From positions 1-64,000 of the IMG/VR virus record IMGVR_UViG_3300028888_000047: a stretch of DNA of 64,000 bases. One strand, written 5' to 3'. The translations under genes and the position numbers were made by a program. The notes beneath the pieces are model-generated. The model did not search any database and was not told where the DNA came from. It worked only from the letters and a program-made list of their open reading frames with translations. Below are positions 4,955 through 33,221 of this stretch, piece after piece. Each line of letters starts with the position of its first letter. The first letter of the stretch is position 1. This DNA comes from a virus. Its lineage: Duplodnaviria > Caudoviricetes.

Positions 4955-5827
4955 TTAAATATTGTTAATACACATCTTTAAATCTTCTACAACTATTGGA
5001 TTCTTAACCAACTCATGCGTACCATCTTTATATTCAATATCAATACTGTTATCATCAAATTGTTTAATATCTGATATTAGGGAACAAACAAATTCTCTTT
5101 CCTCATAACTAAACAAATACGGTGATATTTCTAATAATTCTAAAACGCATAATGGCTCAGATAATTCTCCATAAAGATTAATTACACTCTTATCGCCAAT
5201 GCATTTATTTCTAGTTGCTAACGATTTCTCATAATTATTGAAAAACGTTTCCCACCTGAAAGTAAATAACTCAAGACTAGAATCATTTATTATTAGTCTA
5301 TTTCCAAAGTCTTTCCAAGTAAGACTTGTTTCAGACTCATGATTTGATACATTATCAATTCTTGGTCTAATAACAAACCAACAATCACCTCCCAACTCCT
5401 TTACCAAATCAAGTTCATTTGGAAACCTAACATCATCTATCACATAGTTTTTAGATGGGCTAATCATTTCACGTATTCTATTAACGTGCCAATTGGTATT
5501 GTATTTCCTTATTAAATCAGTTCCAATAAATTGCAGCATGTGCCTGGCATCTTTGATAACAACACCATCACATGTTTTATTGACAATATCTAACGGTATT
5601 TCCGTTTTTTCAGAAATTAATTTACATAAATCATTTCCAACAACAATGCCAATTTCAGTTTTATCTGCTTTTAACTTATTTAACTCATCTATGGAAATAT
5701 CTAATAAATCAGCACATAGTTGTTTTAATGGTAGAGCAAAATATAATTTCTCATACCCATATTTTTCACATATGTTGGCCAACTCCGTTTTACCACTTCT
5801 CATTCGGCCTGAAAATCCCAATATCAT
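4955..5827 (-). CDS. Deoxynucleoside monophosphate kinase-like
   Basis: P-loop GRMRSGKT, FALPLK, LQFIGTD, DDVRFPNE, HESE. Confidence 0.85.
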   Translation of the reverse strand: MILGFSGRMRSGKTELANICEKYGYEKLYFALPLKQLCADLLDISIDELNKLKADKTEIGIVVGNDLCKLISEKTEIPLDIVNKTCDGVVIKDARHMLQFIGTDLIRKYNTNWHVNRIREMISPSKNYVIDDVRFPNELDLVKELGGDCWFVIRPRIDNVSNHESETSLTWKDFGNRLIINDSSLELFTFRWETFFNNYEKSLATRNKCIGDKSVINLYGELSEPLCVLELLEISPYLFSYEEREFVCSLISDIKQFDDNSIDIEYKDGTHELVKNPIVVEDLKMCINNI

Positions 5828-24405: not shown

Positions 24406-24697
24406 CGAAGAATTTATTATAAGATTTTTGTTTTGTATTTGAAGCGTGTTGCCTGCGAAGGCAACACGTTTTTCTTTTTATACATATTCATTTCAATTGC
24501 CTCACCTTGGTGAACAACCCTTTCACCTGTTTTCCCACCTCAAAGATAATAAATTTAATCCAATCTTGCAAATTTTTATTGTTAATTGATGTTAAAGAAA
24601 AAAGTTTTTTTATTAACATTTTTTACATATATTTTTTTGGAAATTAGAAATAAAATGATTATCTTTCCAACGTTAAACATTTAAATTTATATTAATT

Positions 24698-25369: not shown

Positions 25370-25672
25370 TGGGTACTTAATTAAGTACGTAGTTGGATTT
25401 TGTAGCATAGGCATTTTAATTTTTTGATTGAAGCACGCTGCTCATGAGAGTGGCGTGTTTTTTTTATATTTATTAACATTAAAAATTTGGCTATTTCAGT
25501 TTTTATTGTTATCTTTGAAATGGGCAAACAGAAGACGCTCGTGAAGAGGCGTATGAATACAGTAAACATTCAAATGTTAATAAAATGTTAAAGTGGGAAA
25601 AATATTTGGTAATATCAAATTTAATTATTATCTTTCAAGCGTTAAGTTAAACAATTAAATAAATAAGGTATT

Positions 25673-25864
25673 ATGAAGATTAAAGGCTTAAAGAAGTGTG
25701 GAATGGTTGCCGAGAAAGTCAAGGGCAAGAACGGCAAGGTGTATGAGACCGGTGAGCAGATTCAGCAGTATGTGGCTCCTGATGGCTTCAAAGGAACGTA
25801 CAATAGATTCATTAGAGAAGCTGAACGCGGCAATCTTCACGGCTGCATAATTGCTTCAAGTTAA
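25673..25864 (+). CDS. Hypothetical protein
   Basis: Promoter at 25629. Confidence 0.7.
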   Translation: MKIKGLKKCGMVAEKVKGKNGKVYETGEQIQQYVAPDGFKGTYNRFIREAERGNLHGCIIASS

Positions 25865-26009
25865 CATATAGAAGTTGTTGGGTACTGAAAGCATTTAAGA
25901 TTAATCCCCAACGCTTCAAGTGTTAAAAAAGTGTTAAAGTCACGAAAAAATTTGGATATATCAAAAAAAATGATTATCTTTGCAACGTAAACAATAAAAA
26001 ACAAATAAT

Positions 26010-26135
26010 ATGAGCAAGAAAAGTTTTAAGAAATCAACGAAATTAAAGCGAGTGATAGCAATCCCCGGACGTGTCATTAAGAACTCCAAGGGAGAGGTAG
26101 TTAAACAGCTTTACAATATCCTCAAAGTAGGATAA
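26010..26135 (+). CDS. Small basic ORF (41 aa, MSKKSFKKSTK...)
   Basis: Promoter at ~25975 and A-rich leader. Confidence 0.5.
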   Translation: MSKKSFKKSTKLKRVIAIPGRVIKNSKGEVVKQLYNILKVG

Positions 26136-26224
26136 AGTTCCAACAAAGGTTAACGGCAAACTAAATGTAGCTAATTAATGCGGAATGTCGGTTAAAGCCG
26201 TTACGGTAGGATAAAACAAACCAC

Positions 26225-26342
26225 AGCGAATGGAACATCGGCCACTCGGCCAATTCTCTAAGTCCCGAGCCGCCACTATCCAAAGCGAATGGAACATCGG
26301 CCACTCGGCCAATTCTCTAAGTCCCGAGCCGCCACTATCCAA
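26225..26342 (+). repeat. Perfect 59-bp tandem duplication
   Basis: AGCGAATGGAAC...ACTATCCAA twice. Confidence 0.95.
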
Positions 26343-26499
26343 GAATGGGGAAACCTACCTTTACCTTTTTTAACTAATTAAAACGTAACAGTGAGCGTAT
26401 GAAGAGAAATAAACCTCCGCCCTAAAGGGATTATATGATATTTAATTAGATTTTTTATGAATACTATGATAGTGAATACAATGAGACGAATAATGATTA

Positions 26500-27007
26500 G
26501 AGGCCGACCCTAAAGGTCTCTCCCAAGCTATCTGAGCAATGAATGAGTTTAGGCTGATAATAGTGCGAGAAAGGCAAACCTCATTGGCAAGGATTGGCTT
26601 ATCAGCGTAATCGATAGCACCGCCCCCATATAAATAATCCGGAGTATTGAAAGAGGGTAGGTGAGTGCAACAAGGTGAATCTCGGCCGGACTGATGGGCG
26701 GAGTACGAGGTTGCACAAATTAATAGGGCGCGTTGGTCTGCCATTTGGCTCTGTTGCGTTGACAACGATGCCATAGATAGGCCGCTCGTTTGCGCCCATA
26801 TTCAAAGGGGTTTAGGGCCGCCACCCATTCGCGCTTTACAAAGCGGTAATTTTTAGGCACGCCCGTTGCACCGCCGTTGCGGCGCATCACCCCACACTTT
26901 TTAACAGGGCATAGTGCCGATATTATTCGGCTCGCGTAATTAATGATGCCCAACAAAAGGGGAATTGCCCCGCCCAACGGTAATATCACACCGCAGGGTT
27001 AGGTCTC
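26500..27007 (+). ncRNA. Large (~510 nt) structured ncRNA, unclassified
   Basis: GC-rich island; the two ends pair (GAGGCCGACCCT with AGGGTTAGGTCTC); many internal helices; abuts a tRNA-like gene. Confidence 0.7.
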
Positions 27008-27023
27008 CCCTTTTACTTTTTCT

Positions 27024-27207
27024 CTTTCTTTAGCTCAGTTGGTAGAGCATCACGGCAGAGTGCTATAGGAAACAAATGCCTCAAGTTCATAGGAAACAAA
27101 CGCCTCCAAAGTGAGGAAGCCGTACGAATAAAGAGTTCCTGGTAAGTTCTCCGTTTGTTTAACTATGATAAACGTGAAGGTCGTTGGTTCGAGTCCAACA
27201 AGTTAGA
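27024..27207 (+). tRNA. tRNA-like gene with 118-nt insertion replacing the anticodon loop
   Basis: Canonical D arm and T arm; TCACG/CGTGA anticodon stem; acceptor stem with two U-U mismatches. Confidence 0.75.
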
Positions 27208-27517
27208 GCAAATACTTTGCTTTCATAATTTGTTAGTTTTTGATTGTTTGACACGAAGGTGTAGCTTAATTGCTACGCCTTTTGTCGTATATATGCTTTT
27301 CGACGACAGAACCTTGGTGATACAACCCTTTTATTTGTTTCCCCACTTCAAAGATAATCATTTTTATTGAATCTTGCAAATTTTTATTGTTAATTGATGT
27401 TAATAACAGTAAGAAAAAATATTTCAAATTTTAAGTTTTTTTAATAATAAAAATTTTGAAATTTGAAATTAAAATATTATCTTTCAGGCGTTAAACAATT
27501 AAATAATATAATAATGT

Positions 27518-27736
27518 ATGGCAACAAAGAAACATATATGTGGCATATACAAAGGTTATAAGATTATTCAAGAATATGAACAAATTGGTAACGGCATATA
27601 TGGAATATTCTATCCTTGCGTTAAAAAGCGTAACAGGTGGTATAAAAGAAAAAACTTTGGTTCAACAAAGTTAGAAAGTTTAAAAAAATGTATTGATATT
27701 TGGGAAAAAGAGAAAGAACAAACAACAATTAAATAA
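27518..27736 (+). CDS. Hypothetical protein
   Basis: Promoter at 27478. Confidence 0.7.
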   Translation: MATKKHICGIYKGYKIIQEYEQIGNGIYGIFYPCVKKRNRWYKRKNFGSTKLESLKKCIDIWEKEKEQTTIK

Positions 27737-27744
27737 CTAAAGTT

Positions 27745-28020
27745 ATGGAAACAATTAAAGGAAAAACGGTTCAAGTTCTTACTATTGATTGGATTGATGA
27801 TTGTTCAACAATTCGTCAAAGTGTAGATACATTTGAAGATGTTGAAGATGCTCGCAAGGCATTATCACAGTTTGATGCGGAAGTAAATGATTGGGTTAAA
27901 TCAACACGTCCCGATTGGAAACGTGAAGGTGATGGAATTAATTTCGTTGAATATGGAAAAGAAGGATATTACTTTGATTCTCACGCTGTTGCAAAAATAA
28001 CAATGAGTGTTGTTAAGTAA
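27745..28020 (+). CDS. Hypothetical protein
   Basis: Operonic ORF. Confidence 0.7.
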   Translation: METIKGKTVQVLTIDWIDDCSTIRQSVDTFEDVEDARKALSQFDAEVNDWVKSTRPDWKREGDGINFVEYGKEGYYFDSHAVAKITMSVVK

Positions 28021-28334: not shown

Positions 28335-29066
28335 ATGGCAAAAAACGTTTGTACTAACAAGAGTTTGATTAAGGCAGAGATTAACCACTATCTGGAACTG
28401 CTTCGTAACGCAATCGCATTCAATGGTCGTTCTCACGTTCCCGTGTACTTCGCAGGCGTTCACAAGGAGGCCATCGAAGCCATCAAGGAAATGGGCATCA
28501 AGGTCGAGGAAAAGGCCGGTCGCTGGACTACCAAGTTCTATGCACCTAAGAAGGGTACTAAGGCGTGGAACACCCTTTTCAACGGCTCAAAGGTTTTGGA
28601 AGAGGCCAAGGCTCACAACGAGGCCAAGGTAGCTGCTGCTAAGGCAGAGAAGGAGGCCAAGGCTGCTAAGGCTAAGGCTAAGGCTGAAAAGAAGGCTGCT
28701 AAGGAGAAGGAGGCCAAGGCTAAGGCTGCTGCTAAGGCAGAGAAGGAGGCCAAGGCTGCTAAGGAGAAGGAGGCCAAGGCTAAGGCTGCTGCTAAGGCTG
28801 CTAAGGCTGAAAAGAAGACTGCTGCTGCTAAGGCTGCAAAGCCCAAGAAGGATGCAACCGTGAAGGCCGCAAAGCCCAAGACCGAGAAGAAGGCTGCTGC
28901 TAAGGCTGCAAAGCCCAAGAAGGAGACCAAGCCAAAGGCTGAAAAGAAGGCTGCTGCTAAGGCTGCTAAGGAGACCAAGCCAAAGGCTGATGCTGCTCCA
29001 AAGGCTGCTCCTGCTCCAACAGCCGAGCCTGCTCCAACAGCCGAGCCTGCTAAGACTGAGGCTTAA
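28335..29066 (+). CDS. Histone H1-like Ala/Lys/Pro-rich protein
   Basis: ~90-aa globular N-terminus, then AKAAK/KPK repeats; strongly biased GCT/AAG codons. Confidence 0.8.
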   Translation: MAKNVCTNKSLIKAEINHYLELLRNAIAFNGRSHVPVYFAGVHKEAIEAIKEMGIKVEEKAGRWTTKFYAPKKGTKAWNTLFNGSKVLEEAKAHNEAKVAAAKAEKEAKAAKAKAKAEKKAAKEKEAKAKAAAKAEKEAKAAKEKEAKAKAAAKAAKAEKKTAAAKAAKPKKDATVKAAKPKTEKKAAAKAAKPKKETKPKAEKKAAAKAAKETKPKADAAPKAAPAPTAEPAPTAEPAKTEA

Positions 29067-29959: not shown

Positions 29960-30150
29960 ATAAAATGCTGCTCAAAAAAGAGTAGCATTTTTTACATTTA
30001 TTAACACCAAAAATTTGGCGCTTTAATTTTAAATGATTATCTTTGATGTGGGAAAATAAATGAAGGCGTTGTAACACCAAGATGAAAAAATAAGAGAATA
30101 ATTTGGTTTTCTCAATATTTATTTGTATATTTGTAAGAGTTAAACAATAT

Positions 30151-30234: not shown

Positions 30235-30508
30235 CATTTATTTTTTCATGTTGTAGTTTTAAATGGCTTTCGCTCATCACGAGCGGGAGCCATTTTTCCT
30301 TTCATGCCACTCCCTGTGGAGGAACTCATTAGTATCCTATTGTTCCTACCTCAAAGATAACAGTATTTTTTCAAATATCCAAATATTTTCTTGTGTTTAA
30401 CACTATTTTAACACTTATGTTAATTAAATGTTAAAATTGAAATTTTATTTTGTTTTTAAAAAATAAATGCTTATCTTTCCCACGTTAAACAATTAAATTA
30501 ATATTAAT

Positions 30509-32744: not shown

Positions 32745-33221
32745 CAATTTAGCAAACGCATATAGGTAGTAGCGACTATCTATGTTTGCTATTTCAAGGA
32801 CAAAACCTTTTTTAAATGGGCGTTGCAAACGTAAGGGGAAGAGCGTTTGCAACGTTTTTTATTAACCCATTCAATTAACATTTATTAACTAAAATAATTT
32901 TGATATGTCATTTTTTATTATTATCTTTGAAGTGGGCAACCAGGAAAAGCTCGTGAGGAGGCGTTGGTGAACTGTAAATAGTTCGAATGTTAATTAAATG
33001 TTAAAGTGGTAATTTTATTTGTTTTTTAAAAAATAAATTATTATCTTTCAATCAAAGAAAATAAATAAGGAGATATTAATTATGGCATATAGAGATAAAA
33101 TAACGTTGCATATCTATTGGGATGATGGTGTCACTGTTGAATGCCGTTATTTTCCATCAAAGAAAGCTGCAAAGAAATATGCAAAAGACAATGGTTGCGT
33201 TGGTTATAAAATTGATTAAAT

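Follow-up and report, generated by a model that had tools for sequence, protein, structure and literature searches.

Only a few bacterial or phage RNAs of more than 400 nt combine a conserved, intricate fold with the lack of an assigned function: OLE, GOLLD, ROOL, raiA and HEARO. Two of these large RNAs were recently found to form RNA-only cages. Mammals offer a precedent of another kind in MALAT1-mascRNA, where a long non-coding RNA is followed by a tRNA-shaped element and RNase P cleavage gives the 3′ end. Among phage RNAs, ROOL (RF03087) is a multi-helix non-coding RNA of ∼600 nt from phages and prophages, often found beside tRNA genes and of unknown function (PMC12286853). GOLLD (RF01998) is a large phage RNA that lies near tRNA islands, with tRNAs sometimes inside the GOLLD linker (PMC12286853).

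Here we describe a locus from an IMG/VR virus record of 317 kb with an estimated completeness of 95%; the locus lies in its first 64 kb, a stretch that as a whole is termed the window. A sequence-only reading had proposed that the window holds a large structured non-coding RNA, possibly of a new class, directly upstream of a tRNA-like gene. Covariation in 13 homologues and the lack of an Rfam match bear this out. We assign to positions 26366-27011 a large folded non-coding RNA of ∼650 nt, absent from Rfam and from the searched literature. Judged from sequence comparison, it is very probably a real structured RNA of the + strand that belongs to an uncatalogued family.

Genomic setting of the locus

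The two-part motif TTTG, 17-22 nt, TAnnTTTG, which we take to be the consensus of the main Bacteroidota sigma factor, has 33 matches in the window against 5.7 expected. Because of this enrichment, the host of the 317-kb phage is probably a member of the Bacteroidota. Ordinary tRNA genes for Lys, Leu and Met were found in the window by ARAGORN and Rfam, all within 6 kb of the large RNA, and the locus sits amid these phage tRNA genes and numerous short ORFs that have strong promoters. The same two scans called no gene in 26500-27210. The GC-rich island of the sequence-only reading is evident, with a GC content of 0.45 at 26001-27000 against ∼0.31 in the surroundings. The elements that flank the RNA and its tRNA-shaped neighbour are as follows:

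25951-25982, + strand: Bacteroidota-type promoter-like site (TTTG, 20 nt, TAnnTTTG), from the motif scan
26010-26135, + strand: ORF encoding a basic protein of 41 aa; in every case it directly precedes the RNA locus
26205-26359, + strand: small structured module, M1, in which conserved 5′ and 3′ ends enclose an insert that varies
27222-27249, + strand: conserved tail of 28 nt, nearly invariant in all relatives
27256-27283, + strand: terminator-like hairpin and short T run; relatives show clearer T runs, and covariation in the stem
27349-27380, - strand: convergent promoter-like site pointing into the tRNA-shaped gene and the large RNA, from the motif scan

The site at 25951-25982 is the only + strand promoter-like site upstream of the element, with none between 25982 and 27349. 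A consensus scan did not list the hairpin at 27256-27283. The 41-aa protein has 13 metagenome homologues of 40-46 aa at 66-95% identity; Pfam matched neither this protein, nor a 63-aa protein, nor the small proteins downstream.

M1 looks like a separate, undescribed small RNA family. It is also present in L047, L048, L053, L045, L049, L050, L052 and L055, with one or two copies per locus and at least four kinds of insert between invariant ends, and one M1 copy of L011 has matching deletions in the two sides of the closing stem. Three ∼410-kb phages have M1 without the large RNA, and in the one inspected (L047) a terminator-like hairpin follows it. Rfam returned no hit for M1, only a weak match to the L20 leader (E 0.2-0.26). 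Inside the window's M1 is a 59-nt tandem duplication (26216-26274 / 26275-26333, 95% identical), which is recent and phage-specific, because it is missing from the closest relative, L010.

The 28-nt tail has no second copy in the genome. Its reverse complement resembles an A-rich leader plus ATG, and the - strand mini-ORF that follows has 7, 14 or 27 codons depending on the phage, so it is not conserved as a peptide. Minus-strand promoters also stand just 3′ of tRNA-Lys (24541-24572) and tRNA-Leu (30352-30383), an arrangement kept in L004, and the blocks 24514-24595 and 27322-27403 are 88% identical. Since these promoters point back into tRNA genes, convergent or antisense transcription of those genes is implied.

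Behind many consensus promoters, on both strands, comes a short G-rich leader that contains a small hairpin and is similar from site to site; it may be a small RNA or a 5′ leader element common to these promoters:

25518-25560: G-rich leader after a promoter
30046-30080: G-rich leader after a promoter
32930-32975: G-rich leader after a promoter
27300-27348, - strand: G-rich leader after a promoter
24500-24540, - strand: G-rich leader after a promoter

The window also encodes, at 28335-29066, a 243-aa protein with a long Lys/Ala-rich repeat region and a composition like that of histone H1, for which Pfam and PHROG gave no match.

A narrow family in huge phages and metagenomes

A blastn search of GenBank phages returned no match to the element. 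A neighbouring 223-aa gene led to one related phage of 401 kb, G001, whose locus (L004) matches the window in gene order and carries the element in diverged form. Exact-pattern and protein-pattern scans of IMG/VR with the core, the tail and the neighbouring genes returned G001 as the sole relative. In the metagenome contigs that carry homologues of the 41-aa ORF, a gene-free stretch of 1.0-1.5 kb lies immediately 3′ of the ORF, and a metagenome scan with a DNA pattern combining the T arm and the conserved tail gave 11 further true loci. The 13 large-RNA homologues thus come from one related huge phage and from metagenome contigs.

The family is narrow, with about 13 sequences, from phages not in culture, in four or five lineages and core identities of 51-99%. 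The RNA is single-copy in each of the two huge phage genomes (the window's and G001). A 22-nt core motif had no true copy among 185,579 genomes (one per prokaryote species); four matches in GC-rich prokaryote genomes were dismissed as local chance matches of 23 nt by the covariance model R1 described below. The loci share a common layout: a small ORF, one or two M1 copies, the GC-rich RNA and a tRNA or tRNA-shaped gene, followed by the 28-nt tail, the terminator hairpin and the convergent promoter on the opposite strand.

A core fold retained by compensatory changes

The conserved core of the RNA is made up as follows:

26616-26797, + strand: conserved core, evident on alignment; R1 scores the window at 189 bits
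26618-26626 / 26654-26663, + strand: core helix that closes an internal loop, in which a single-stranded stretch is invariant
26665-26671 / 26710-26716, + strand: GTGCAAC/GTTGCAC helix, enclosing an inner hairpin at 26675-26706
26726-26732 / 26791-26797, + strand: GGGCGC/GCGCCC helix, closing a long irregular stem (26726-26797)
26734-26737 / 26781-26784, 26746-26749 / 26770-26773 and 26753-26756 / 26763-26766, + strand: sub-helices of the long stem

RNAalifold, applied to raw MAFFT alignments of all clades, gave poor structures, with L004, L036 and L037 misaligned; a hand-set structure and model-based realignment were therefore used. The first test scored nine sequences in a plain MAFFT alignment on the hand-set structure, with the 3′ partners slid by one to three columns as the control. 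In this alignment 96.4% of the 392 pair cells were paired, as against 27-44% in the slid controls. Seven of the 44 pairs had changed on both sides (slid controls, 0-2) and the covariation score was 0.185 (slid controls, 0.02-0.06).

R1, the covariance model built from this alignment, found L036 at 163 bits, L034 at 57, L004 at 36 and L037 at 33. The resulting alignment of 13 sequences had 97.3% of its cells paired. Here 20 of the 44 pairs had changed on both sides, compared with 1-4 in slid controls and 9.3 ± 1.7 in shuffles (0/500 reached 20), a count that leans towards R1 because the alignment was fitted to the model, a bias of which the MAFFT alignment is free. With double-changed pairs above the controls, the comparison of homologues supports a conserved fold. 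The folding energy is unremarkable (z = -1.58 on the + strand, -0.53 on the - strand).

Two helices singled out by the sequence-only reading, GTGCAAC/GTTGCAC and GGGCGC/GCGCCC, are present and retained by compensatory changes. The first becomes GCGCAGC/GCTGCGC in L028 and GCACGGC/GTCGTGC in both L034 and L036. A third proposed helix, GGCAC/GTGCC, did not hold up, being lost in L010.

A fixed frame with exchangeable parts

On either side of the core lie domains of very different conservation:

26366-26615, + strand: 5′ domain, with conserved hairpins and then clade-specific hairpins (26526-26606)
26419-26431, + strand: conserved 5′ hairpin, present in every relative
26506-26518, + strand: conserved local hairpin with compensatory changes between clades
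26798-27011, + strand: 3′ domain specific to the window's clade; helices retained in the clade's five sequences, with little covariation
26807-26810 / 26890-26893, + strand: helix closing the three-way junction of the 3′ domain, with hairpins 26832-26845 and 26867-26886
26907-26909 / 27008-27010, + strand: helix closing the last 3′ sub-domain

The start proposed earlier, at 26500, has to be moved: conserved sequence begins ∼130 nt before it, near 26366. L052 and L049 have a promoter ∼45 nt upstream of their equivalent of hairpin 26419-26431, and from its position the 5′ end of the large RNA in the window likely falls at ∼26366. The terminal helix 26500-26511/26995-27007 proposed with that start is complementary in the window, but in L010 and L011, its nearest relatives, the 3′ arm gives way to unrelated sequence. 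Similarly, GCTGATAA/TTATCAGC and AATGAG/CTCATT lie where they had been placed and do cross, but the pseudoknot suggested for them gains no support. Both fall in 26526-26606, a stretch confined to the window's clade and invariant within it.

One longer-range contact is a candidate: the loop of hairpin 26506-26518 is complementary to 26724-26728, and this complementarity is retained in 12 of 13 sequences, where it is invariant. A pairing between the invariant stretch 5′ of hairpin 26419-26431 and the invariant single-stranded stretch of the core was rejected, as the variant in L034 is uncompensated.

Other clades have different sequence or modules in place of 26798-27011. Seven loci (L019, L026, L030, L045, L049, L052 and L055) keep the flanks and the 5′ hairpins around another central RNA, one missed by R1. 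Because conservation extends over the 5′ domain and the core while peripheral and 3′ modules differ by clade, the large-RNA family is, on this sequence comparison, a fixed frame with exchangeable inner parts. These natural exchanges at the periphery, with the core fixed, offer ready material for tests of structure and function.

Strand and coding potential

The + strand is favoured because G-U cells exceed A-C cells by 52 to 6 among the paired cells. Pairing is 97.3% when the alignment is read as the + strand and 88.5% when it is read as the - strand, and the upstream promoter (25951-25982) and downstream terminator hairpin agree with the + strand in their orientation.

The region could instead be nonfunctional, a decaying remnant of a mobile element or protein gene, or else a coding region of the - strand. 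Minus-strand ORFs of 110 and 89 aa are open in the window, gene callers place - strand genes over the element in L011 and L017, and the content of the locus is mosaic. Against this, no frame on either strand is open across the homologues, most indels are not multiples of three, and in L013, L016 and L026 none of the six frames stays open for more than 40-70 aa. Unshared frames and indel lengths led us to reject coding on either strand, in keeping with the earlier claim that the island lacks a credible ORF. The compensatory changes in the helices and the retained place between promoter and terminator likewise speak for a functional RNA, which makes a remnant scarcely credible.

A tRNA-shaped gene with an interrupted anticodon loop

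The tRNA-like gene reported by the sequence-only reading is there, directly 3′ of the large RNA. Its parts are:

27024-27207, + strand: tRNA-shaped gene, directly 3′ of the large RNA
27024-27030 / 27200-27206, + strand: acceptor stem
27033-27048, + strand: D arm
27183-27199, + strand: T arm
27050-27054 / 27173-27177, + strand: anticodon stem
27055-27172, + strand: insert of 118 nt

The acceptor, D, anticodon and T stems are retained by compensatory changes in 10 homologues, and several homologues score 31-38 bits on the Rfam tRNA model (RF00005, cut-off 29). The window's own copy has no Rfam tRNA match, even at E up to 10, and is called by ARAGORN in intron mode only. Its acceptor stem contains two U-U mismatches, which might weaken recognition by RNase P.

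In all 10 of 10 copies, 17-118 nt separate the strands of the anticodon stem instead of a seven-nucleotide loop. The insert, ∼14-118 nt long, is placed right after the 5′ strand of the stem and in most copies opens with an identical nine bases. The last seven bases before the 3′ strand resemble an anticodon loop: that of one clade is Thr-like (U-GGU-GA), that of L010 is Ile-like (U-GAU-AA), and those of the window and L011 contain one additional A. In the anticodon arm, the sequence pattern of a kink-turn, where a helix leads through a 3-nt bulge to tandem G-A / A-G pairs, was judged by eye; it fits L013, L016, L028, L034, L036 and L038 and misfits the window, L010 and L011, where the GA lies 3-4 nt from the stem. 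In the Thr-like copies the same bases fit both the anticodon loop and the kink-turn pattern. The inserts are too short for a group I intron, and no bulge-helix-bulge intron motif was seen in the tRNA insert by eye. Whether an anticodon loop interrupted by an insert other than a group I intron marks a decoy, a handle for proteins or a novel type of tRNA intron is a question in its own right.

The large RNA and the tRNA-shaped gene always stand next to each other. L052, L055 and L004 have an uninterrupted tRNA at the equivalent place, with a large RNA still present. The one in G001 (L004 12421-12495) has an 8-nt anticodon loop, which ARAGORN reports as 'aatt'. Separately, L010 has an extra tRNA at ∼5171-5246, called Phe(gaa), whose anticodon stem barely pairs; tRNAs of the same type occur in L026, L027 and L019.

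These features bear on the idea that an interrupted tRNA is the working product of the locus. The upstream RNA would then be a leader controlling its maturation, or a ribozyme or guide that removes the insert, with RtcB sealing the halves. The anticodon-like 3′ side of the loop (Thr in one clade, Ile in L010), the shared nine-base start of the insert and the constant adjacency of the two RNAs all favour this idea. So does a full-length RtcB RNA ligase in both huge phages (G000 103617-104807, - strand, 207 bits; G001 316545-317735, 197 bits), but RtcB is widespread in large phages, where it is common as a tRNA repair enzyme. The anticodons called by ARAGORN disagree among homologues (Ile, Tyr, Thr or Gly), and the Thr-like loops have G at position 37, which is unusual for tRNAs reading ANN codons. 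Rfam detected no known ribozyme motif at the window or at seven homologous loci, no homologue of the archaeal-type splicing endonuclease was found in either huge phage, and the three loci with an uninterrupted tRNA have a large RNA nonetheless. Taken together, we regard a working interrupted tRNA as improbable. Its strongest form, in which the large RNA excises the insert by catalysis or as a guide, RtcB joins the ends and a tRNA-Ile or tRNA-Thr arises only during infection, would be very improbable; if true, it would give a bacterial virus an RNA-based route of tRNA splicing, related neither to group I introns nor to the archaeal endonuclease.

Proposed release from a multi-part precursor

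The explanation that we lean towards overall, with a little better than even confidence, is that of an uncatalogued, ornate phage RNA released by tRNA-processing enzymes from a multi-part precursor. A single precursor would extend from promoter site 25951-25982 as far as hairpin 27256-27283; some relatives have an additional promoter just before the large RNA. The tRNA shape would serve as a handle for the host's tRNA-processing enzymes, and a cut by RNase P at 27023/27024 would free the large RNA, leaving its 3′ end U-rich, as in MALAT1-mascRNA. By this analogy, release through the tRNA-shaped element is an evenly balanced proposition. Counted against the overall explanation is the - strand promoter (27380 to 27349), which could yield antisense transcripts.

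Once freed, the RNA might persist as a stable folded particle, which might assemble with itself or use its invariant unpaired stretches to bind a partner, along the lines proposed for ROOL and GOLLD. Such a ROOL/GOLLD-like particle role, again argued from analogy, is a tentative suggestion that we hold to be rather doubtful.

An unlikely alternative role, less so than a working interrupted tRNA, is that the large RNA, the anticodon-less tRNA shape or both act as a decoy or sponge that binds and blocks a protein of the host, for example an RNA sensor or a defence nuclease that cuts tRNA. The setting amid phage tRNA genes and strongly promoted short ORFs suits a decoy, and the phage RtcB fits pressure from RNA-cutting defences. 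The periphery and the tRNA insert turn over fast among close relatives while the core is stable, as an arms race would lead one to expect, yet these data fit a scaffold role equally well. Moreover, no Ro60/TROVE protein is encoded by the phages and the YrlA model misses the locus.

Comparison with known RNA families

Rfam 15 (4227 families, gathering scores) gave no match to the large-RNA region on either strand, and none appeared in 25500-28000 (2.5 kb, both strands) at E up to 10 with permissive filters. The large RNA of seven homologous loci also went unmatched at E up to 1, and full-text literature searches turned up no description of such an RNA family. The families named for comparison by the sequence-only reading (ROOL, GOLLD, RNase P, tmRNA and group I/II introns) are among those without a match, which agrees with its view that the RNA is neither ROOL nor GOLLD.

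A very diverged ROOL, GOLLD, RNase P RNA, tmRNA or group I/II intron could still have been missed by the Rfam models, and in size, phage origin and tRNA-gene neighbourhood the RNA is like ROOL and GOLLD. The permissive searches of the 2.5-kb region and the seven loci make this very unlikely. A tmRNA was rejected, as neither ARAGORN nor Rfam reports one and the acceptor stems lack G3-U70. Group I/II introns and RNase P RNA lack an Rfam match, and at every locus the element lies between a complete small ORF and the tRNA-shaped gene, with no interrupted host gene or exon flanking it.

A reading as a tRNA-like Y RNA was likewise rejected: the YrlA model had no match at the large-RNA locus and a search of the phages for a Ro60/TROVE protein found none. 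Elsewhere in the two genomes, the YrlA model gave matches below its cut-off of 69 bits at G000 157680-157790 (38 bits) and G001 268145-268255 (34 bits), and these may be further tRNA-shaped RNAs.

The similarities that remain concern arrangement. YrlA-type tRNA-like Y RNAs (RF02553) share with this locus a non-decoding tRNA shape and the presence of RtcB in the same genomes; however, their topology is opposite, the window element having free acceptor ends and a closed anticodon arm. The likeness to MALAT1-mascRNA lies in the logic of the arrangement only, as there is no homology, the setting is a phage and the cleavage is here a proposed step.

Because it fails both models and shares no visible helices with them, the RNA is not a member of ROOL or GOLLD. 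Like ROOL, it is a large multi-helix phage RNA near tRNA genes (here Lys, Leu and Met within 6 kb). Unlike ROOL, whose covariance model does not match it and with which it has no recognisable common helices, it belongs to a phage with a likely Bacteroidota host and has a periphery that is swapped between close relatives. With GOLLD it shares one conserved and one variable half and a tRNA that can be covalently linked. In GOLLD, though, the 3′ half is conserved and the 5′ half variable, whereas here the 5′ and central parts are conserved and the 3′ part is variable; the tRNA shape is found at the 3′ end, not in a linker inside the RNA, and the GOLLD model does not match. A further, unrelated family in huge phages that probably infect Bacteroidota would widen the small set of large RNAs of this type and, beside GOLLD, would add a second kind of large RNA covalently joined to a tRNA shape.
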